Assembly: GCA_016432465.1 (NCBI GenBank)
Contig: CP066690.1
Coordinates: 526,823-590,822, forward strand
Source: Candidatus Sungiibacteriota bacterium
Lineage (GTDB): Bacteria > Patescibacteriota > Minisyncoccia > Sungbacterales > HO2-52-23
DNA length: 64,000 nt
Direction: 5' to 3'
Every line of letters begins with the position of its first letter. The stretch's first letter is position 1. Positions 7,546-58,730 of the stretch are shown here, in pieces. The position numbers were made by a program, and so were the translations under genes. The notes below the pieces were generated by a model. The model did not search any database. It worked only from the letters and a program-made list of their open reading frames with translations, and was not told where the DNA came from.

Positions 7546-8175
7546 GTATTATGGCCTCATATGAATCTCGTTATTCAGTCTCTTATATTCGCCAGTTTTA
7601 TTTTTGAGACCGGGTTTGGCCTGCTTTCGCCCATTTTTGCCGTTTTTGTAACACAGCAAGTCGGCGGAGGCGATGTTACGGTGGTAGGAATTGCAGCCGG
7701 CGTCTACTGGATTTTAAAGTCCATATTGCAGGTGCCGGTGGGCAGGTTTCTTGATAAAAAACAAGGGGAAGACGACGATTTTTGGGCGTTATTTGCCGGC
7801 CACTTTCTTATGGGTCTAACCGTGTTTCTTTATCAGTTTGCGCGTACCCCTATACATATATATATGCTGCAGGGGTTGCTGGCCATTGGCGGCGCGCTTC
7901 TGGTGCCGTCTTGGTACGCCATGTTTCTTCGCCACGTTGATAAACATAAAGAAGGTTTTGAGTGGAGTATTAACTCCAGTCTGTCTTACGGTTTAGGAAC
8001 AGGCGGAGCTGGGGTTCTGGGCGGATTTTTGGCCAAGGCCTATGGTTTTAATTTTATTTTTGTGACCGGGGCGATATTGGTGTGGGCCAGTTTGCTTATG
8101 CTCTTGGTTTTGCGGCGGAACCTGCGTAATCATCAGCTCCCGCCAATACCAAAAGCGCCTTCACCCGTTTTATGA
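7534..8175 (+). CDS. membrane protein, MFS-transporter-like half (6 TM)
   Basis: The ORF track start is TTG. ATG at 7561 is the more likely start. Hydrophobic helices with a G-rich loop. Confidence 0.5.
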   Translation: MSYLVLWPHMNLVIQSLIFASFIFETGFGLLSPIFAVFVTQQVGGGDVTVVGIAAGVYWILKSILQVPVGRFLDKKQGEDDDFWALFAGHFLMGLTVFLYQFARTPIHIYMLQGLLAIGGALLVPSWYAMFLRHVDKHKEGFEWSINSSLSYGLGTGGAGVLGGFLAKAYGFNFIFVTGAILVWASLLMLLVLRRNLRNHQLPPIPKAPSPVL

Positions 8176-9962
8176 CCAATCAGGAAATTGCAAAAATTTT
8201 GCAGGAAATGGCCGCCCTCTACGAGATGGAGGGCGTTGAGTTTAAGCCGCGCGCTTACGAGAAAGCCGCGCTTGGGGTGGAAGCGTTGGATACGGAAGTA
8301 AAAGAAATTTATAAAAAGGGCGGATTAAAAGCCCTTGAAGAAGTTCCGGGAGTGGGGCGGGGCATTGCGTATCACATGGAGATGCTTTTGAAAAAAGGCA
8401 GTTTCCCGGAGTATACGCGGCTTAAGAAAAAAATTCCAGTGCGAATTTCAGAGCTTACTTCAGTGGAGGGTGTGGGGCCGAAGATGGCGAAGGTATTGTG
8501 GCAGAAACTTAAAATTCGTAGTCTCGCTGATTTAGAAAAAGCGGCGAGAGCCGGAAAAATCCGAAAGCTTGAAAATTTCGGTGAAAAATCCGAGCAGAAA
8601 ATTTTAAAAGGCATTGGGTTTTTGAAAAAATCAGGCGGCAGACAAATTCTCGGATTTATTCTTCCGGAAATTCGCAATCTTGAGAAAATGATTCAATTTT
8701 TTCCAGAAGTTGACGAAGCGATTGTCTGCGGCTCCGTGCGGCGCCGTAAAGAAACCATTGGCGATATAGATATTTTGGCAACCTCATCAAAGCCCCAAAA
8801 AGTAATGGATAGATTTCTGGGACTGCCATTTATTGCCCATGTTTATGGCAAGGGGCCAACCAAGACCAACGTAAAACTCCGACGTTTTAGTCGGAGCTCC
8901 GACCCCGCGTCGGGGTTAAAAAATGGTCTGGATGCTGATTTGCGTGTAGTTCCCAAAAAATCTTTCGGTGCCGCGGTAAACTATTTTACCGGCTCCAAGG
9001 ACCATAACATCGCGCTTCGGGAAATTGCAATTAAAAAAGGGTGGAAGTTAAACGAGTACGGACTATTTGCGGGAAGTCGGACTTCCTTGAGGAAGTCCGA
9101 CTTCCTTGCCGGACGGACGGAAGAAGAGCTCTACCGGAAACTCGGGCTTCGCTATATTGAACCCGAAATGCGAGAGAATACAGGAGAGATTGAGTCTTCA
9201 CGGCAGAATAAATTACCCAAACTCATTGGCTATGGAGACCTCAAGGGAGATTTACAGGTCCAAACCAATTGGACTGACGGAGAGAACTCTATTGAGGAGA
9301 TGGCGCGAGCGGCCAAAGAGGCGGGGCTTGAATACATCGCGATAACAGACCACACCCGTTCTCTAGCCATGACCGGAGGCGCAGATGAGAAAAAACTCCT
9401 TAGGCAAATGAGAGAAATAGACGAAATCAACCAAAAGCTAAAAGCTAAAAGCTATAAGCTTCACGTGTTGAAGGGTGCTGAAGTAAATATCGGCAAAGAC
9501 GGCTCCTTGGACATCAAGGACGAAGTTTTAAAGAAACTTGATGTGGTTGGCGCGGCCGTGCACAGCCACTTTAATTTATCACGCAGCGAACAAACCAAAC
9601 GTCTTATCCGCGCCATGGAAAATCCAAACGTGGATATTATTTTTCATTTAACCGGTCGCATTATAAACCGCCGCGAGCCGATTGATGTGGATATTGACGA
9701 AATTGTAAAAGCCGCCAAGCGCACCAAAACAATTTTAGAAATTGATGCCTACCCCGACCGTTTGGATATTAAAGACGAATATATCCGCAAGTGCGTTGAA
9801 GCGGGTGTTAAAATGTCTATTGATTCCGACGCGCATTCGGCCCAGCACTACAAGTATTTAGAAATAGGGATAGCGCAGGCGCGAAGGGGTTGGGCAGAGA
9901 AGAAAGATATTATCAATGCGTGGCCGCTGGAGAAGATGAAGGATTTTCTAAGAGATGCTTGA
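8172..9962 (+). CDS. polX: DNA polymerase X family protein with C-terminal PHP domain
   Basis: HhH motifs. Pol-beta nucleotidyltransferase motif GSVRRRKETIGDIDIL. PHP motifs ITDHT and HSH. ATGA overlap with the upstream gene. Confidence 0.85.
   Translation: MTNQEIAKILQEMAALYEMEGVEFKPRAYEKAALGVEALDTEVKEIYKKGGLKALEEVPGVGRGIAYHMEMLLKKGSFPEYTRLKKKIPVRISELTSVEGVGPKMAKVLWQKLKIRSLADLEKAARAGKIRKLENFGEKSEQKILKGIGFLKKSGGRQILGFILPEIRNLEKMIQFFPEVDEAIVCGSVRRRKETIGDIDILATSSKPQKVMDRFLGLPFIAHVYGKGPTKTNVKLRRFSRSSDPASGLKNGLDADLRVVPKKSFGAAVNYFTGSKDHNIALREIAIKKGWKLNEYGLFAGSRTSLRKSDFLAGRTEEELYRKLGLRYIEPEMRENTGEIESSRQNKLPKLIGYGDLKGDLQVQTNWTDGENSIEEMARAAKEAGLEYIAITDHTRSLAMTGGADEKKLLRQMREIDEINQKLKAKSYKLHVLKGAEVNIGKDGSLDIKDEVLKKLDVVGAAVHSHFNLSRSEQTKRLIRAMENPNVDIIFHLTGRIINRREPIDVDIDEIVKAAKRTKTILEIDAYPDRLDIKDEYIRKCVEAGVKMSIDSDAHSAQHYKYLEIGIAQARRGWAEKKDIINAWPLEKMKDFLRDA
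9072..9105. repeat. tandem duplication of a 15-nt palindrome (GGAAGTCNGACTTCC x2) inside polX, in frame
   Basis: ggaagtcggacttcc-ttga-ggaagtccgacttcc, read directly. Confidence 0.7.
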
Positions 9963-9990: not shown

Positions 9991-10266
9991 ATGCACTATA
10001 TTTATATCTTGAAAAGTATTACAGCCAAGATTCTGTACACTGGTCGTACAGAAAATTTGTCCAGAAGAATAAGAGAGCATAACTCCGGTGGTACTTTTAC
10101 TACAAAAAAGTATAAACCACGGGCGTTAGTATAGTGCGAAGGGTATTTTGATATTGAGGACGCTAAGTATAGAGAACGGACCATCAAACAGTTCGGTAGG
10201 GTGTATTCACAGCTCAAACGCAGAATACAAAGAAGCCTTCGCAGCGCCGAAAAGGTGCGGGGTTGA
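9991..10266 (+). pseudogene. GIY-YIG nuclease superfamily protein (UPF0213-like) interrupted by in-frame TAG
   Basis: MHYIYILKS...ILYTGRTENLSRRIREHN is a GIY-YIG signature. TAG at 10132-10134 sits where the conserved Tyr of ..LVY.E.. is expected. The frame continues to TGA at 10264-10266. Confidence 0.6.
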
Positions 10267-10374: not shown

Positions 10375-10968
10375 ATGCCAGAGCATGGAACAACCCAGGC
10401 AGAGTTTGAAGGTCTCTATATTGACCTTCAGTCGGCGGTGCTCCGTCAGCTACCGCGGCCGGCAGCCTTTACCCGCGAGACGCTGAAGAGCCTGCTCGGG
10501 AAGCAGGCGGCACTTCGGCGCGGTTTGGCGCCGCTCGCCAAAGGACTCGTGGACGGCTTCGCTGCCCCACTGCGGCCGATCCTGCAGAACGACAAGCGGC
10601 GGCAGGGATGGACGCTCGTCGACCACACGCCGCGTAGCATCATGGCCGTGTCGGACCTAGAGCTTGTCCCGTTTCTGCGGGACGGCGAGAAGGTTCTCCG
10701 CGGCTACGACATGATGGGCCGCGCGCGCTATGAGTTCGACGCGGACCTCGGCCAAGAGGACGCCGAGTTCATTCTTGAGCGTCAGGCCGAGATTCCAGAG
10801 GAGTTCCGCCAGTACTACCTGGTTTTCCTCAGGACGGTCTGGCTGGCCTCGGACGGCGACCTGTACGTGTCCTGCCTCTACTTCGGCGACGGGCGGTGGT
10901 ACCCGTTCTTCGGCTGGCTCGACTTCGACTTCCGTCCGGGCGTTCGTCTCGCTCGCTTCCGCAAGTAG
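10375..10968 (+). CDS. hypothetical protein, GC-rich (foreign-looking) gene
   Basis: Coding region is markedly more GC-rich than its flanks (third positions mostly G/C). Own promoter and SD. Terminator downstream. No recognisable family. Confidence 0.6.
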   Translation: MPEHGTTQAEFEGLYIDLQSAVLRQLPRPAAFTRETLKSLLGKQAALRRGLAPLAKGLVDGFAAPLRPILQNDKRRQGWTLVDHTPRSIMAVSDLELVPFLRDGEKVLRGYDMMGRARYEFDADLGQEDAEFILERQAEIPEEFRQYYLVFLRTVWLASDGDLYVSCLYFGDGRWYPFFGWLDFDFRPGVRLARFRK

Positions 10969-11023
10969 TCCTTTCACTCTTGGGATTCTGGACAGTTCTT
11001 GTCCTGGATTCCTTGAGAACTTT

Positions 11024-11065
11024 AACGCCTGTGTGGCTTCTCCGCACAGGCGTTCGACATTTTTA
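11024..11065 (+). terminator. rho-independent terminator (imperfect 12-bp stem + TTTTT)
   Basis: AACGCCTGTGTGG..CCGCACAGGCGTT, then CGACATTTTT. Confidence 0.5.
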
Positions 11066-11072
11066 AGTTAAT

Positions 11073-11085
11073 GAGGTTGAACCTC
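11073..11085. repeat. palindromic hairpin GAGGTTGAACCTC (copy 1, left end)
   Basis: Read directly. Confidence 0.8.
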
Positions 11086-11113
11086 ACTAGGAGATGGAGT
11101 ATACTGATCTTGT

Positions 11114-11827
11114 ATGTCAAAACCACAATTCGTTGAGGACAATATCTATCATGTATATAACCGAGGCGTGGAGAAGAGAAACGTATTTCTTCGAGACCGA
11201 GACTACCTCCGTTTTATTCACGATCTCTATGAGTTTAATGATGTCGATCCTGTCTCCAATGTATGGTACTATTTCAACCCAAAATATAATGAGGTTGAAC
11301 CTCATTATATTCCAAAAGAACGGAAGAAACGTAAATTGCTTGTAGAGATTCTGGCATTCGTATTGATGCCGAATCATTATCATCTTCTTTTACGCCAGCT
11401 TCGAGAAAATGGTATTGTAAATTTTATGCAGAAGCTGGGCGGCTACACGATGTATTTTAACAAAGTGAATCAACGGGTTGGTCCACTTTTTCAGGGACGA
11501 TTTAAGGCGGTTGCGGTTACCGAAGAACCCCACTTTATTTACCTGCCGTTCTATATTCATGTTAACCCCATCAAAATCTATCGAGGTTCGACCTCGCTAG
11601 ATAAGACGATGAAGTTCTTAGAATCATATCGCTGGAGCAGCTTTCCCGATTATATTGGAAAAAAGAATTTTCCTTCGATAACTTCGCGCCGATTTCTGCA
11701 TGAATGTTTTGGCGGGGAAAAGGAACAACGGAATGAAATGCGGCAGCTTGTCAAAACGAAATTTGCTGATTTGGAAAAGGTTAGTGAGCTGACCCTCGAT
11801 GATGATTTCGGAATGCTACAAAAATAG
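11114..11827 (+). CDS. Y1 (HUH) transposase, IS200-like / REP-associated tyrosine transposase (RayT/TnpA_REP)-like
   Basis: HUH motif in LMPNHYHLLL. N-terminal IYHVYNRGV. GRFKAV and a Tyr-containing C-terminal region. About 237 aa. Confidence 0.65.
   Translation: MSKPQFVEDNIYHVYNRGVEKRNVFLRDRDYLRFIHDLYEFNDVDPVSNVWYYFNPKYNEVEPHYIPKERKKRKLLVEILAFVLMPNHYHLLLRQLRENGIVNFMQKLGGYTMYFNKVNQRVGPLFQGRFKAVAVTEEPHFIYLPFYIHVNPIKIYRGSTSLDKTMKFLESYRWSSFPDYIGKKNFPSITSRRFLHECFGGEKEQRNEMRQLVKTKFADLEKVSELTLDDDFGMLQK
11291..11303. repeat. palindromic hairpin GAGGTTGAACCTC (copy 2, inside transposase CDS)
   Basis: 18-nt identity with copy 1 (TAATGAGGTTGAACCTCA). Confidence 0.8.
11583..11595. repeat. palindromic hairpin GAGGTTCGACCTC (copy 3, inside transposase CDS)
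   Basis: cgaggttcgacctcgctag, read directly. Confidence 0.75.
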
Positions 11828-11828
11828 C

Positions 11829-11841
11829 GAGGTTCAACCTC
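11829..11841. repeat. palindromic hairpin GAGGTTCAACCTC (copy 4, right end)
   Basis: cgaggttcaacctcactag, immediately after the transposase stop. Confidence 0.8.
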
Positions 11842-12008
11842 ACTAGTTACGGCTGGGTGCATTTTCCCGACCACCGCGTCTTACGAACTACCACCAAAAG
11901 GCGTATGATTAAAAAGTTAGCCGCGGCCAAAACTAAAGCAACCGAGATTTCTTACGCCGGATTTCTCAAACACGGCAGTACTTATAAGTTGAGAGCTTCT
12001 CTTAATTT

Positions 12009-12458
12009 ATGCCCGTTGAACGCTCTGCAGGAATAATAGTTTTTCGCAAGACCCCAAGAGGAAGGAGATATTTGGTTATACGGGCCTCTAGAAATTTTTC
12101 TGAAGTTGCCAAGGGCAGAAAAGTTCATGAATTTTGGGATTTTCCGAAAGGAAGATTGGATAAGGGCGAGACGGGAATTGGCGCTGCTCTGCGGGAAGCA
12201 AAAGAGGAAGTGGGTCTGGACAATTTTGAAGTTGTCCCGGATTTTAAGGAAACCATCCGTTATTTCACGTGGCGTGGCGGAAAACCAATCCCTAAATTTG
12301 TGGCTCTCTTTTTGGCTCGCACCAAAACCAGTAAAGTTAAACTTTCCTGGGAACACGATAAATATGAGTGGCTGTCCTACACTGAAGCTGTGAGGCTGGT
12401 TACTTTGCCACAGATGAAAGATGCGCTGAGGAAGTCAGAGAACTTTTTATCCCGTTAG
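12009..12458 (+). CDS. NUDIX hydrolase
   Basis: Nudix box GRLDKGETGIGAALREAKEEVGL. Confidence 0.85.
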   Translation: MPVERSAGIIVFRKTPRGRRYLVIRASRNFSEVAKGRKVHEFWDFPKGRLDKGETGIGAALREAKEEVGLDNFEVVPDFKETIRYFTWRGGKPIPKFVALFLARTKTSKVKLSWEHDKYEWLSYTEAVRLVTLPQMKDALRKSENFLSR

Positions 12459-15639: not shown

Positions 15640-15660
15640 GATAAATTAGTCTTTAGACTC

Positions 15661-16013
15661 GGTGGAGATGGGGGGAATCGGACCCCCGTCTGGAAGTTTC
15701 GGCAGCTAAAATTTATACGGGTGTATCCCACACTTTGCGGGAAGAGGTGCTCGATAAATGTCATAACCCCTATCGAGCATCTGGGTTACCAAGCTCGGTG
15801 TTATAACACCGGTTTGCTCTCTCACGAGCGTTGAGAGACCGATGCCACAAATCCGAAGATTCGTAGGGTTCTTTCGTTAAGCTACTGCGTAGGCAGGCTG
15901 CGCGAAAGATTTAAATAAGTTTGCACTTATTTGATGCGAGAATTTAACGAGTGATCTCGCGTCCTCGACCCGATTTTAACCACCTCTGACCCCCATCGAA
16001 GCCAATCATCCCC
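15661..16013 (-). ncRNA. ssrA: tmRNA (SsrA), about 353 nt
   Basis: Minus-strand 5' end GGGGAUGAUUGGCUUCGAUGGGGG. 3' end GGGGGUCCGAUUCCCCCCAUCUCCACC (T-arm plus acceptor). Internal tag ORF GCA AAC UUA ... GCU UAA encodes ANLFKSFAQPAYAVA*. smpB is adjacent. Confidence 0.8.
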
Positions 16014-31398: not shown

Positions 31399-32319
31399 GT
31401 GATAGACAAAAAGATGTCAACCCCAAAACTTTTTGATGCCCATACTCATATTCAATTTGCGGCATTTAAAGACGACGCGGATTTGGTTGTTAAACGCGCC
31501 TTGGATGCAGGAATTTGGATGGTAAACATCGGAACGCAGAAAGATACTTCGGCGCATGCGGTGGAGATGGCGCAAAAATACCCCGAAGGAGTGCATGCGA
31601 CTGTGGGGCTTCACCCGATTCATACGGAGCGCTCGTACCACGACCCACAGGAACTCGGAGAACCATCATCTCTAGTGTTCTCTAATTCGCGCGAATTAGA
31701 GAATAAAGAAAAAGAAAGTGGGAAAAAGAGTGAACAGGATGGGGGTTTTACCAGTCGCGGAGAAGAGTTTGATTATGAGTATTACAAAAAATTAGCGCAG
31801 GATCCGAAGGTTGTTGCAATTGGCGAGTGCGGCTTGGACTACTATCGTCTAGGCCCGGAGACGCGAGAAAAACAAAAAAGTGCTTTCTTGAAGCAGATTG
31901 AACTTGCGCATGAAGTCAAAAAACCGCTAATGATCCACTGCCGGAATGCCTTTTCCGATTTAATTGCTATCCTGCAAACTTATAACCCACAACTTACAAC
32001 TCCGGGCGTGGTTCACTTTTTCTCCGGCACCAAAACCGACGCAGAGAAACTTCTTGATATGGGTTTTTCGTTTACTTTTGGGGGTGTTATCACGTTCGCC
32101 CGCGACTATGACGAAGTGGTACAATATATTCCATTGGAGCGAATAATGGTTGAAACCGATGCGCCTTATGTTGCGCCTACGCCCTATCGCGGAAAAAGAA
32201 ACGAACCAGCATATATAATAGAAGTAGCCAAAAAGGTGGCCGAACTTAAAAATTTGTCTTATGAAGAAGTGAGCACCAAAACCACCCAGAACGCATTAAA
32301 AATTTTTGGAATTCAATGA
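31399..32319 (+). CDS. tatD: TatD family hydrolase/DNase (with a low-complexity insertion)
   Basis: LFDAHTHI, GECGLDYYR, MIHCRNAF, VHFFSG and ETDAPY motifs. Confidence 0.85.
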   Translation: MIDKKMSTPKLFDAHTHIQFAAFKDDADLVVKRALDAGIWMVNIGTQKDTSAHAVEMAQKYPEGVHATVGLHPIHTERSYHDPQELGEPSSLVFSNSRELENKEKESGKKSEQDGGFTSRGEEFDYEYYKKLAQDPKVVAIGECGLDYYRLGPETREKQKSAFLKQIELAHEVKKPLMIHCRNAFSDLIAILQTYNPQLTTPGVVHFFSGTKTDAEKLLDMGFSFTFGGVITFARDYDEVVQYIPLERIMVETDAPYVAPTPYRGKRNEPAYIIEVAKKVAELKNLSYEEVSTKTTQNALKIFGIQ

Positions 32320-34742
32320 GATACGACCCCAAAACAATTGAAAAAAAGTGGCAAGCGCGCTGGCTCAAAGAAAAAACTTATGAGCCGGATTTAAGGCGCG
32401 CCAAAAAGCCCTTTTATAATCTTATGATGTTTCCGTACCCATCGGCCGAGGGTCTGCATGTGGGTAATATGTACGCCTTTGTGGGTGCGGATATTTACGG
32501 ACGGTTTAAGCGCATGCAGGGATACGACGTTTTTGAGCCAATAGGGCTTGATGGTTTTGGGATTCACTCCGAAAATTATGCGTTAAAGATAAAGAAGCAT
32601 CCGGCGGACCAAGCCAAAGTTTCAGAGAAAAATTTTTATCGGCAACTGGAGACGGTTGGCAATGGTTTTGCGTGGCAGGAAAAATTGGAAACTTACGACC
32701 CCGATTACTACAGATGGACTCAATGGATTTTTATACAAATGTATAAACACGGCCTTGCTTATCGTAAGAAAGCACAAGTCAATTGGTGTCCCTCCTGCCT
32801 TACTGTTTTGGCAGATGAGCAAGTACTTGCAGGAGAATGTGAGAGATGCGAGACCGAGGTGATTAAAAAAGAACTTGAGCAATGGTTTTTTAAGATTACG
32901 GATTATGCCGAGCGACTTTTAAAAAACTTGGATACTCTGGATTGGTCCGAGAGGATAAAAATCGCCCAGCGAAATTGGATTGGAAAAAGCGAGGGCGCGC
33001 TCCTTCGCTTTAATGTCAGATGTCAGATGTCAGATGTCAGATGTCCGTCTGTTGAAGTTTTCACCACCCGCCCTGATACTCTTTTCGGCGCGACCTACAT
33101 AGTGTTGGGGCCGGAACACCAACTTATATCAAAAATTAGAAATCAAATATCAAATATTAAAGAAGTTGAAGGGTACATTACAGGAGCTAAAACCAAGACT
33201 GATGAGGAGCGGATTGCGGAGGGTAAAGAAAAAAACGGGGTGGAGCTAAAAGGAATAAAAGCGACAAATCCGGCAAACGGCGAAGAAATTCCTATTTGGG
33301 TTGCAGATTATGTGTTGGGGAATGTGGGCACCGGAGCGATTATGGCGGTTCCGGCGCATGATGAACGCGATATGGAATTTGCTAAAAAATTTAATTTGCC
33401 CGTTAGCAACGCGCCGTTTGTTGATAAGGAAGAAATTGTCAGAAGGGTTGGGGGCAAAAAGACCGTAAATTATAGGCTTCGCGACTGGCTTATTTCCCGA
33501 CAGAGATATTGGGGACCGCCGATTCCGATGATTTACTGTCATAAGTGCGGTTGGATACCTGTTCCGGAGAAGGATTTGCCGGTGCGGCTTCCTTATATAA
33601 AAGAATTCAGACCAACAGGAACTGAAAAATCACCCCTGGCGCTGGTAGAAAAATTTTATAAGGTTCGTTGTCCAAAATGTAAGTCGTGGGCAAGACGAGA
33701 AACCGATGTTTCCGATACATTTTTGGATTCCGCGTGGTATTATATCGGCTACCTCATGGCGGCCTACGATTGGAAATTAGAAATTGGAAATTTGAAATTA
33801 CAGGAAGCCATGCGCAAATGGCTTCCGGTTGATATGTATATCGGCGGCGCCGAGCATGCGGTATTGCATCTTTTATATGTGAGATTTCTCGCGATGGCCT
33901 TTCGTGATTGGGGCTTAACTCTTTTTGAGGAACCATTTAAAAAATTCCGGGCGCACGGACTTTTGATCAGGGATGGCGCCAAAATGTCAAAATCGCGCGG
34001 CAACGTGGTGAACCCGGATGAATATATCCGCGCCTATGGCGCGGATGCCCTGCGGATGTATTTAATGTTTTTGGGGCCGTTTGAGCAGGGAGGGGATTTT
34101 CGGGATGACGGCATCAGGGGGATTACGAGGTTTCTTGAAAGGGCGTGGCGGTTTTGTTCGTCATACAAGGAGAGAAAGACGACTCCAATACACGAATTTC
34201 ACTCGAATGATTCGAATAATTCGGGTGCATTAGAGTATTTGAGTCGCATTCTACATAAAACCATCAAAAAAGTTACCGAGGATATTGAAGGTTTGCAGTA
34301 CAATACGGCGATATCGGCGTTAATGATTCTGCTGAATAAGTTTGAAGAAAGTCCGGAGGCTGTCACCAAGGAGCATGTTGCGGTTTTTCTTAGGCTTCTT
34401 GCGCCGTTTGCGCCGTTTATCAGCGAAGAGTTGTGGTCCCGATTTTTTGCGAACAAAAAATCGGGGATCCTCGATTCGCGAAGCGAATCGGGACATTCAT
34501 TTCATTCAATCCACCACGAGTCGTGGCCAAAGTATAATCCTAAGTTCGTTAAAGAAGAAACTTTTGAACTGGTAATACAAGTGAACGGTAAAGTGCGCGG
34601 CCGCGTTACTTTGCCGATTGGCGCGAGCGAGGAAGATGCAAAAAAGGCGGCTCTGGGTCCGGATTCGGTCAGGAAATATGTGATAGGAGATCCGCGAAAA
34701 GTCATTTTCGTGCCGAATAAGCTTATCAATTTTGTGGTTTAA
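32316..34742 (+). CDS. leuS: leucyl-tRNA synthetase
   Basis: HIGH-region HVGN, KMSKS, TTRPDT, CP1 editing-domain blocks. Confidence 0.9.
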   Translation: MRYDPKTIEKKWQARWLKEKTYEPDLRRAKKPFYNLMMFPYPSAEGLHVGNMYAFVGADIYGRFKRMQGYDVFEPIGLDGFGIHSENYALKIKKHPADQAKVSEKNFYRQLETVGNGFAWQEKLETYDPDYYRWTQWIFIQMYKHGLAYRKKAQVNWCPSCLTVLADEQVLAGECERCETEVIKKELEQWFFKITDYAERLLKNLDTLDWSERIKIAQRNWIGKSEGALLRFNVRCQMSDVRCPSVEVFTTRPDTLFGATYIVLGPEHQLISKIRNQISNIKEVEGYITGAKTKTDEERIAEGKEKNGVELKGIKATNPANGEEIPIWVADYVLGNVGTGAIMAVPAHDERDMEFAKKFNLPVSNAPFVDKEEIVRRVGGKKTVNYRLRDWLISRQRYWGPPIPMIYCHKCGWIPVPEKDLPVRLPYIKEFRPTGTEKSPLALVEKFYKVRCPKCKSWARRETDVSDTFLDSAWYYIGYLMAAYDWKLEIGNLKLQEAMRKWLPVDMYIGGAEHAVLHLLYVRFLAMAFRDWGLTLFEEPFKKFRAHGLLIRDGAKMSKSRGNVVNPDEYIRAYGADALRMYLMFLGPFEQGGDFRDDGIRGITRFLERAWRFCSSYKERKTTPIHEFHSNDSNNSGALEYLSRILHKTIKKVTEDIEGLQYNTAISALMILLNKFEESPEAVTKEHVAVFLRLLAPFAPFISEELWSRFFANKKSGILDSRSESGHSFHSIHHESWPKYNPKFVKEETFELVIQVNGKVRGRVTLPIGASEEDAKKAALGPDSVRKYVIGDPRKVIFVPNKLINFVV
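33013..33045. repeat. (ATGTCAG)x4 heptamer tandem repeat in frame inside leuS
   Basis: atgtcagatgtcagatgtcagatgtcagatgtc. Encodes NVRCQMSDVRC. Confidence 0.8.
33773..33800. repeat. (GAAATTN)x4 heptamer tandem repeat in frame inside leuS
   Basis: gaaattagaaattggaaatttgaaatta. Encodes KLEIGNLKL. Confidence 0.8.
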
Positions 34743-34743
34743 A

Positions 34744-34784
34744 AACATTCTAACATTCTGCAGAATGTTAGAATGTTTTTTGCT
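34744..34784 (+). terminator. rho-independent terminator (17-bp perfect palindrome + TTTTTT)
   Basis: AACATTCTAACATTCTG / CAGAATGTTAGAATGTT, then a T-run. Confidence 0.8.
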
Positions 34785-46024: not shown

Positions 46025-46110
46025 TGGTGCCCGGGGAGAGACTTGAACTCTCAAGGTCTTGCGACCAGTGGATTTTGAGTCCACCGCGTATGCCATTCCG
46101 CCACCCGGGC
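46025..46110 (-). tRNA. tRNA-Leu (anticodon CAA), type II with long variable arm, CCA encoded
   Basis: Minus strand GCCCGGGTGGCGGAATGG...GGACTCAAAATCC...GGTCGCAAGACC...GAGAGTTCAAGTCTCTCCCCGGGCACCA. Confidence 0.85.
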
Positions 46111-58556: not shown

Positions 58557-58730
58557 ACCAATTTTACCCCGTGATTCTTCACGTGGTATTTTAATAAGGT
58601 TCGTTTACCAAGACGGCATCAAAAAAGAACGGAAAACCCGTTCTTTTTTGATGGAAAAAACACTGATTGACAAGAGTACAAGATCAGGCTATACCATAGA
58701 GTAAGAACGTTGACATAAGAAAGGCAAGTC

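Follow-up and report, generated by a model that had tools for sequence, protein, structure and literature searches.

Within the 64,000-nucleotide stretch of Candidatus Sungiibacteriota contig CP066690.1 analyzed here (positions 526,823 to 590,822; hereafter the window, with coordinates counted from its first nucleotide), we found a gene for a Y1 HUH enzyme that is flanked by two DNA hairpins and carries two further copies of the same hairpin inside its coding sequence (CDS). Our data indicate that 11069-11848 is probably a REPtron-like unit, i.e., a gene of the RayT/TnpA_REP class in which cognate hairpins reside in frame and undergo concerted evolution (REP, repetitive extragenic palindrome). 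Enzymes of the RayT kind cut and rejoin single-stranded DNA (ssDNA) at hairpins.

The core of copy 1 spans 11073-11085 (GAGGTTGAACCTC) and that of copy 2 spans 11291-11303 (also GAGGTTGAACCTC), followed by copy 3 at 11583-11595 (GAGGTTCGACCTC) and copy 4 at 11829-11841 (GAGGTTCAACCTC); their general form is GAGGTT(N1-3)AACCTC. A first-pass annotation, made from the sequence alone, had placed four motif copies here, and a search for GAGGTTNNACCTC with at most one mismatch returns 11073, 11291, 11583 and 11829 as the sole sites in the window. The eight strand-matches to this motif compare with 0.72 expected and were equalled in 0 of 100 shuffles, which rules out chance or low complexity as the origin of the copies. 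The annotation had described a perfect 13-nt palindrome present four times; the number of copies holds, while the palindromes are longer, copy 2 being a perfect 29-mer, and copy 3 is not a 13-nt palindrome about a single centre, reading instead CGAGGT-tcg-ACCTCG. It was correct in noting that copies 1 and 2 share 18 nt and that copies 1 and 4 have CACTAG tails. The 18 identical nucleotides of copies 1 and 2 (TAATGAGGTTGAACCTCA) end within the right arm, so that on its face this identity looks like a conversion tract.

Copy 2 encodes K57-I66 (KYNEVEPHYI) and copy 3 encodes I155-D163 (IYRGSTSLD). The palindrome centre of copy 2 falls at codon position 1, where GAG GTT GAA CCT reads EVEP, and that of copy 3 falls at codon position 2, where CGA GGT TCG ACC TCG reads RGSTS. 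Since the two copies differ in codon phase, one DNA motif is translated in two frames; the earlier description of all copies as in frame is thus right in that the coding frame is unbroken and misleading in that the frame of copy 2 is not that of copy 3. The stop codon TAG (11825-11827) lies within copy 4, where the conserved unit has its right end. Predicted ssDNA folding energies of copies 1 to 4 are -4.5, -10.3, -7.9 and -4.5 kcal/mol, making the internal pair the most stable, with a z-score of -6.6 for copy 2. We also considered 11235-11251 as a degenerate fifth copy; it is 82% similar to copy 1, is non-palindromic and lies over the invariant residues N42 and D43, and we treated it as a chance resemblance.

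The encoded protein passes the cut-off of the Pfam Y1_Tnp profile (PF01797) marginally (23.3 bits against 23), and it also gives a sub-threshold hit to the NCBIfam model of REP-associated tyrosine transposases. In a 50-sequence alignment N87, H88, H90, Y147, H149 and N151 are invariant and P152 is nearly so; other motifs of the window protein are FQ at 126-127 (LFQGRF) and RWSS at 173-176. In an AlphaFold2 model (predicted local distance difference test score, pLDDT, 77; predicted template modeling score, pTM, 0.80), residues 89-95 form a strand and the helix at 138-149 carries Y147. The top PDB match of this model in Foldseek is 4er8_A, the complex of Escherichia coli RayT with a REP hairpin (E=7e-5), followed by 2a6m, 2xm3 and 2vjv, which are IS608 and ISDra2 TnpA structures. 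The profile match, the invariant catalytic motifs and the fold matches bear out the initial assignment to the Y1 HUH single-strand transposases. Y-x3-NP is the signature of class 2, TnpA_REP-like enzymes, while IS200 transposases have Y-x3-Q (PMC6006769). The label IS200/RayT-type given at first pass therefore needs narrowing: the tyrosine motif and the best fold match agree with its RayT part, and IS200/IS605 proper has the other motif. These features indicate that the open reading frame (ORF) encodes an enzyme of the RayT/TnpA_REP class and not of IS200/IS605 proper. The Pfam search detected no helix-turn-helix (HTH) or DnaA_C domain in the protein. More than 4900 homologues are present in a clustered protein database (90% identity clusters), the named ones being from the Candidate Phyla Radiation (CPR)/Patescibacteria, and many of them lie on very short contigs. 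A phage origin was ruled out, since there were no relatives in viral contigs and no PHROG match.

We compared the window with 80 homologous loci (46-81% identity) drawn from one-genome-per-species contigs, mostly metagenome-assembled genomes (MAGs) of Patescibacteria, and listed the perfect hairpins around each gene. Hairpins with stems of at least 8 bp are concentrated in the gene and its adjoining 160 nt on either side (2.26 per kb, compared to 0.29 per kb in the remainder of the loci). The common plan is a palindrome 20-50 nt 5' of the start codon, another at or just past the stop codon, and one or two within the gene, and this layout supports the earlier expectation that the flanking hairpins are REP-like or insertion sequence (IS)-end-like partners of the enzyme. 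Internal and flanking copies with a common core are found in 69 of 80 loci. Thirty-four loci have the upstream, site A (the position of copy 2) and downstream hairpins, 10 have the upstream, site B (the position of copy 3) and downstream hairpins, and all four positions are filled in seven loci plus the window.

Both internal sites occupy homologous positions. Site A is bounded by the invariant residues N49 and R73 and corresponds, in the structural model, to a low-pLDDT loop that connects helix alphaA with the strand running into the HUH motif; site B is bounded by N151 and Y172 and forms a linker between two helices, directly after the tyrosine helix. A homologous hairpin is present at site A in 53 of 80 loci, with its centre at codon position 1 in 50 of the 53. 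At site B a homologous hairpin is present in 26 other loci and the centre is at codon position 2 in 26 of 27 called hairpins, the sole exception being an A/T-rich chance hairpin. Fixed positions and codon phases argue that sites A and B are homologous and old, and not the product of repeated random hits. Nested insertion of REP-like hairpins, one of the origins proposed at first, is contradicted by these homologous positions and fixed phases and by the loops themselves, which are equally long with and without a hairpin (medians of 24 and 24 at site A and 23 and 27 at site B). A simple insertion model was rejected on that ground; hairpin-free genes thus have decayed or alternative loops and not empty sites. 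Overall, our alignments indicate that the internal copies have long been resident in the gene, where they change together with the flanking copies, and are not recent insertions.

We found that the internal sites are constrained as DNA. In a centre-aligned DNA alignment of site A (50 loci), changes on both sides are seen at 14 of 14 pairs and 87% of cells form pairs. For covariation the score was 0.61, compared to 0.20 in shuffles; 0 of 500 shuffles reached 0.61, and the score collapses once the partner is slid by one base; 13 of 14 pairs covary at site B. A codon test was defined by peptide and not by DNA: the peptide EV[EQ]P or EV[GR]L is encoded at site A in 35 loci, and in 29 of these the codons are exactly those of a 6+1+6 palindrome, against expectations from the codon usage of the same genes of 2% and 0.8%, and the remaining six make five of the six pairs. 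The E/Q and G/R variants of these peptides correspond to a G/C flip of the centre base; EVEP matches the core GAGGTT and EVGL matches the core GAAGTC. Between the window and its relative L001, a compensatory change of G:C to A:T at site A is non-synonymous on one side (serine to asparagine) and synonymous on the other. These patterns indicate that base pairing and synonymous codons at the internal sites are held by the DNA and not by the protein. The first-pass annotation had named alignment of the internal copies to residues conserved in all homologues without palindromic DNA as part of what would speak against its reading. The EVEP and GSTS residues are indeed conserved, and the reason is conservation of the DNA palindrome.

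The identity of the hairpin differs greatly between loci and very little within them. We counted 20 distinct 6-nt cores (e.g., GAGGTT, GAAGTC, GAGACT, GCAACC, GATTTC, TGTTTGGAGA and CGGACTT), and, of the 10 bases nearest the loop, an average of 9.2 are common to internal and flanking copies within a locus, compared to 1.9 between loci. Arm lengths range from 6 to 22 bp between copies of one locus. Loop bases within a locus are complements of each other (G/C, A/T, TCG/CGA, GAG/CTC and TTCGG/CCGAA), so a single element is present in both orientations; the upstream and downstream copies have opposite orientations in 35 loci and the same orientation in 19. Paralogues within one MAG can have different hairpins (L004 and L023; L024 and L043), and the nearest protein neighbour shares the core in 32 of 77 cases, compared to 20% by chance. 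This loose link between core and phylogeny suggests that hairpin classes switch often and that all copies of a locus switch together. Since a switch entails at least 6 substitutions per copy in three to four copies, which is implausible by point mutation, we infer copy replacement.

Nucleotide similarity to the closest relatives (74%) begins at 11073 or 11113 and ends at 11845-11848. Apart from one weak tblastx match, nothing in the flanks is shared with the 80 loci, and the nearest protein relatives adjoin topoisomerase I/DprA or HTH/glutaredoxin genes. By tblastn, the window has no second copy of the Y1 gene, and the exact window protein occurs in one context only, in several samples. Some pairs of genes are discordant between hairpin-bounded modules, as exchange of the three modules among family members might produce (e.g., the middle 91% identical and the N-terminal part 62% identical); these reach an absolute z-score of about 3.5 among 19,900 pairs, which is noise level.

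Individual loci provided further observations on the unit and its hairpins. At 4822-4951 of L101 (metagenome contig Ga0155236_107), a duplicate of the CDS from the site A hairpin to the HUH codons lies 5' of the gene. It is bounded by hairpins, with the junction ...AACCACT|GAAATAGTGAGG; this single, anecdotal case may record an event of cleavage and rejoining at an internal hairpin. Tandem Y1 genes, each with its own hairpins, are found in L051 (2234-2935 and 3001-3672) and L063 (1332-2033 and 2257-2958). The longest forms of the flanking hairpins in L065, L054, L072 and L091 share an outer foot, CCCCATCTA...TAGATGGGG, around differing cores, and the window codons N151-P152-I153 (AAC CCC ATC), just 5' of copy 3, resemble this foot.

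The upstream copy coincides with a promoter-like site. The loop region of hairpin 1 supplies its -35 hexamer, and its -10 hexamer ends 9 nt 5' of the ATG. A Shine-Dalgarno sequence at normal spacing was found neither in the window gene nor in any of the 73 loci with an examinable upstream hairpin; in many of these, a TATAAT-like hexamer is found 12-14 nt 5' of the ATG. Within the GTTGAAC class, 13 loci have exactly 21 nt between the hairpin centre and the -10 hexamer downstream of it; in other core classes TTGACT lies just upstream and the hairpin occupies the promoter spacer. The position of the -10 hexamer together with the missing Shine-Dalgarno sequence suggests that the mRNA is probably leaderless. 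At the level of conserved consensus elements, copy 1 overlaps the core promoter of a gene that is probably leaderless, and a copy embedded in the promoter suggests a simple autoregulatory circuit.

Related hairpins also occur away from the gene. The consensus GARGTYNRACYTC has six matches in the window against 0.06 expected, four in the unit and two in the PolX gene (8172-9962, forward strand). The REP-like inverted pair in PolX, approximately 2 kb upstream of the Y1 unit, is in frame and encodes GSRTSLRKSDFL, a net 7-amino-acid insertion relative to Thermus PolX (3au2); its ssDNA fold is predicted at -17.7 kcal/mol. The pair belongs to the GAAGTC sister core class, which is found with other family members (L016, L074 and others), and the window has no cognate Y1 gene with a GAAGTC core. 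Possible origins of the pair are an earlier hairpin class of the unit, of which it would be a relic, and a second Y1 gene elsewhere in the genome. The second in-frame hairpin pair of PolX coincides with a 13-amino-acid insertion relative to the Thermus protein. Among the 80 loci, 13 have hairpin copies far from the gene, which are mostly intergenic; some lie within long ORFs and keep the frame. When metagenome contigs were scanned for exact matches to the 21-nt palindrome TAGTGAGGTTNAACCTCACTA, 16 contigs were found, and 14 of these (stretches of 1.6-14.5 kb) have no Y1 gene. Several of the gene-less contigs derive from a metagenome that also yielded a gene-bearing contig, whose extended feet they share. 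These distributions indicate that the hairpins are REP-like dispersed elements in at least some genomes.

A mechanism that would fit the REPtron-like unit can be outlined. The encoded enzyme would bind and process the hairpins as ssDNA, by analogy with E. coli RayT and its REPs. Recurrent copy replacement at fixed sites would keep the copies of one locus identical, either through enzyme-mediated cleavage and strand transfer or through short-tract conversion. Occupancy or extrusion of copy 1 might repress the promoter and so provide autoregulation. The internal copies may persist by being tolerated in permissive loops and continually refreshed, and they could serve as additional binding sites. 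A bolder version of this reading, which we regard as possible and rather doubtful, is that the intragenic hairpins are selected cis-elements: a CPR-wide RayT lineage would store its own substrate for self-regulation or for co-inheritance of enzyme and repeat, and the enzyme would rewrite the three to four copies in register at each class switch. If so, RayT-mediated in-situ hairpin replacement would have left its natural record in these loci, and the same elements would write short peptides into housekeeping proteins, e.g., PolX.

We weighed this unit against other explanations of the same hairpins. An autonomous IS200/IS605-type element, in which hairpins 1 and 4 are the ends, the 0.78-kb unit transposes and the internal copies are incidental, appears unlikely to us. 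It would account for the resemblance of the fold to IS608 and ISDra2 TnpA, for nucleotide homology confined to the hairpin-to-hairpin unit amid differing gene neighbourhoods, for tandem or second copies in a few genomes, and for the many homologues on very short contigs. It fits poorly with the Y-x3-NP motif, which is not the Y-x3-Q of TnpA_IS200, and with a single copy in the window whose context is constant across samples; moreover, both ends are the same perfect palindrome in either orientation and not a distinct, imperfect left and right end, orphan hairpins exist without the gene, and the family-wide, fixed in-frame copies are left unexplained. That the palindromes act mainly as mRNA structures (translation attenuation, RNase III targets or 3'-end stabilization), independently of recognition by the enzyme, would agree with the transcription of copies 2-4 along with the gene, with the stability of the internal hairpins, and with the location of copy 4 directly past the stop, similar to many REPs that stabilize upstream mRNA (PMC3733652). 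We nonetheless judge it quite improbable, and we found no evidence for RNA-level autoregulation, as raised at first pass. The transcript is apparently leaderless, so that copy 1, being in its promoter, is probably untranscribed; copies occur in both orientations, identical hairpins are intergenic or on either strand of other genes, and self-complementarity reaches the palindrome centre, which RNA folding does not need. Mismatches on the sense strand show no bias of G.T (131) over A.C (148), a weak test measured outside perfect stems.

Double-stranded operators for a dimeric DNA-binding protein, either the C-terminal part of the enzyme or a host regulator, would explain the dyad symmetry and the overlap of the upstream copy with the -35 element or the promoter spacer in most loci, and HTH-like C-terminal domains have been reported for subclass 2.1 proteins (PMC6006769). 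This explanation seems to us very improbable. The arms are contiguous to the centre and vary by many base pairs among copies of one locus, covariation as base pairs extends to all 14 positions, the closest structure is a complex with an ssDNA hairpin, and the window protein has no detected HTH domain; dispersal into unrelated genes would also be unexpected for operators.

Several points weigh against the REPtron-like unit and the concerted evolution proposed for it. The inner 5-6 hairpin pairs were imposed by the search criterion, which leaves the outer 8 as free evidence, and the covariation could possibly stem from templated repair within the hairpin instead of selection for pairing. MAG bins are possibly chimeric, which weakens the argument from paralogues. 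The loose link between core and phylogeny could count the other way as well, since specificity set by the protein would predict a tighter one, and the hairpins could be set by the repeat population of the host. The GT[AG]G tag by which canonical REPs are defined is missing; it lies within 20 nt of 7 of 234 hairpin copies, compared to 7% of random 20-mers. The protein scores 37.3 bits against the NCBIfam profile REP_Tyr_transpos (NF047646), below its cut-off of 80, and a PDB sequence-profile search returned no match at E<0.01. Finally, the first-pass annotation had proposed a search for hairpins beyond the unit as a sign of REP-like dispersal; such hairpins are dispersed in related genomes and may be in the window's own, of which the 64 kb covered here have no further GAGGTT-type copy.

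The spread of REP-type hairpins and the cellular role of RayT enzymes are unsettled questions, and this lineage offers many natural replicates, mostly in small CPR genomes, in which three to four copies at fixed places change together, two of them under frame constraint. The concerted pattern is hard to obtain via point mutation and argues for precise copy replacement at hairpins. Our data further show that conserved peptide motifs (EVEP and GSTS) can be by-products of a constraint on DNA, which matters for annotation and for how conservation in alignments is read, and that CPR housekeeping genes can carry REP-encoded peptide inserts.

Coordinates of the Y1 unit and of the PolX hairpin pairs are collected in Table 1. 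Directly 5' of the unit, a 197-amino-acid ORF (10375-10968, forward strand) has a G+C content of 62-65%, against 42-45% in the surrounding region. It matches neither Pfam nor PHROG and is followed on its 3' side by a strong terminator-like hairpin (11024-11054) and a T run; it looks horizontally acquired. A 47-amino-acid ORF at 9991-10134 (forward strand) is a truncated gene, since its match to a GIY-YIG nuclease domain (E=1.5e-11) covers only the first half of that domain. With this ORF, the G+C-rich ORF and the Y1 unit, the segment 9960-11860, between PolX and the NUDIX gene, has the look of a foreign or mobile patch. Elsewhere in the window, other long perfect palindromes lie at 34741-34780 (40 nt, loopless), 31678-31703 (26 nt, loopless) and 58617-58653 (16-bp stem, 5-nt loop), and their sequences are unrelated to the Y1 hairpins. 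Rfam gathering-score matches identify a tmRNA (transfer-messenger RNA) gene at 15660-16013 and a tRNA gene at 46028-46110, both on the reverse strand.

Table 1. Features of the Y1 unit and of the hairpin pairs in PolX, in window coordinates.
Feature	Position	Strand	Description
Second in-frame PolX hairpin pair	8877-8915		CTCCGAC-gtttta-GTCGGAG, then CCCCGC-gtc-GGGG-type pairing
REP-like inverted pair in PolX	9070-9107		GGAAGTC-g-GACTTCC TTG AGGAAGTC-c-GACTTCCT
Hairpin copy 1, upstream	11069-11089		TAATGAGGTT-g-AACCTCACTA, 10-nt arms, 1 mismatch
Promoter-like site	11077-11105	+	TTGAAC-17 nt-TATACT, sole sigma-70-like site in 10900-12100
CDS, Y1 HUH enzyme of RayT/TnpA_REP class	11114-11827	+	237 amino acids
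Hairpin copy 2, site A	11283-11311		AATATAATGAGGTT-g-AACCTCATTATATT, perfect 29-nt palindrome
HUH motif codons	11372-11383	+	N87 H88 Y89 H90; N87, H88 and H90 invariant
Catalytic tyrosine motif	11552-11569	+	Y147-I-H-V-N151-P152; Y147, H149 and N151 invariant
Hairpin copy 3, site B	11576-11602		ATCTATCGAGGT-tcg-ACCTCGCTAGAT, 12-nt arms, 1 mismatch, 3-nt loop
Hairpin copy 4, downstream	11822-11848		AAATAGCGAGGTT-c-AACCTCACTAGTT, 13-nt arms

TnpA_REP enzymes are known to coevolve with their cognate REPs (PMC6006769, PMC8266576), and REPs within genes, including many DNA repair genes, were documented by De Nocera et al. 2013 (PMC3733652). We found no description of the present arrangement in CPR in the searchable literature, which is itself incomplete. 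E. coli RayT (TnpA_REP, YafM; 4er8) is the best structural match, has the same HUH and Y-x3-NP chemistry, and its gene is likewise bracketed by hairpin substrates that are often inverted. In contrast, sequence identity is only 15%, and the E. coli REPs are imperfect, bulged, GTAG-tagged, extragenic and present in the hundreds, with none inside the rayT CDS. IS200/IS605 elements (IS608, ISDra2 and IS200) similarly have a Y1 HUH gene bordered by hairpins, and in IS200 the ends are additionally perfect palindromes and expression is controlled by a hairpin; these elements differ in the Y-x3-Q motif, in high numbers of identical copies, in distinct ends of fixed orientation and in having no intragenic copies of their ends. 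Rickettsia palindromic elements (Ogata et al.) and intragenic REPs also form in-frame palindromes in functional genes, often of DNA replication or repair, as in PolX here. The Rickettsia elements are 100-150 bp long and have no identified cognate transposase, whereas those described here are 13-40 nt long and tied to a Y1 family.

The protein resembles subclass 2.1, or TIRYT with its TIRtrons (De Nocera et al. 2013, PMC3733652; group 1 RAYTs of Bertels), in its NH[YF]H, FQ and Y[IV]HLNP-like motifs, its SS tail and a length of about 238 amino acids, a likeness drawn from motif comparison only and not from formal classification, with YIHxNP as the family consensus here. Low gene copy number is shared as well, and some TIRYT flanking repeats are self-complementary and belong to small dispersed families. 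On the other hand, no REP-like sequences were reported near subclass 2.1 genes (PMC6006769), whereas hairpins are present here. TIRYTs have a GGGGWSAS terminal inverted repeat (TIR) motif, which is absent from 10900-12100 of the window. Intragenic copies were not reported for subclass 2.1/TIRYT, and no DnaA_C or HTH domain was detected in the window protein.

Internal hairpins were called unusual at first pass; they are, and there is a precedent, since in-frame REPs within tnpA_REP genes have been reported for subclass 2.4 (Quentin, Siguier, Chandler and Fichant 2018, PMC6006769; group 4 RAYTs of Bertels). As here, a RayT-class gene is flanked by cognate palindromes and contains additional copies with the frame intact, and the palindromes are fully symmetric ("double-foot") and located in peripheral loops. 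The two differ in motifs (NHYH, FQ, YIHVNP and RWSS here; NH[IFV]H, WQ and YIxNNP in subclass 2.4), in length (237 amino acids compared to a median of 194), in the placement of the insertions, which here lie at residues 57-66, before the HUH motif (87-90), and at 155-163, after Y147, and in the GT[AG]G...C[TC]AC feet, which the hairpins here do not have. Hosts are CPR/Patescibacteria here and Cyanobacteria or Bacteroidetes there, and internal sites that are fixed in position and phase across the family and switch together with the flanks have, to our knowledge, not been described for subclass 2.4. The arrangement is therefore of a kind already known, and what is distinct here is that internal copies are near-universal, fixed in phase and switch together with the flanking copies, one of which lies in the promoter.

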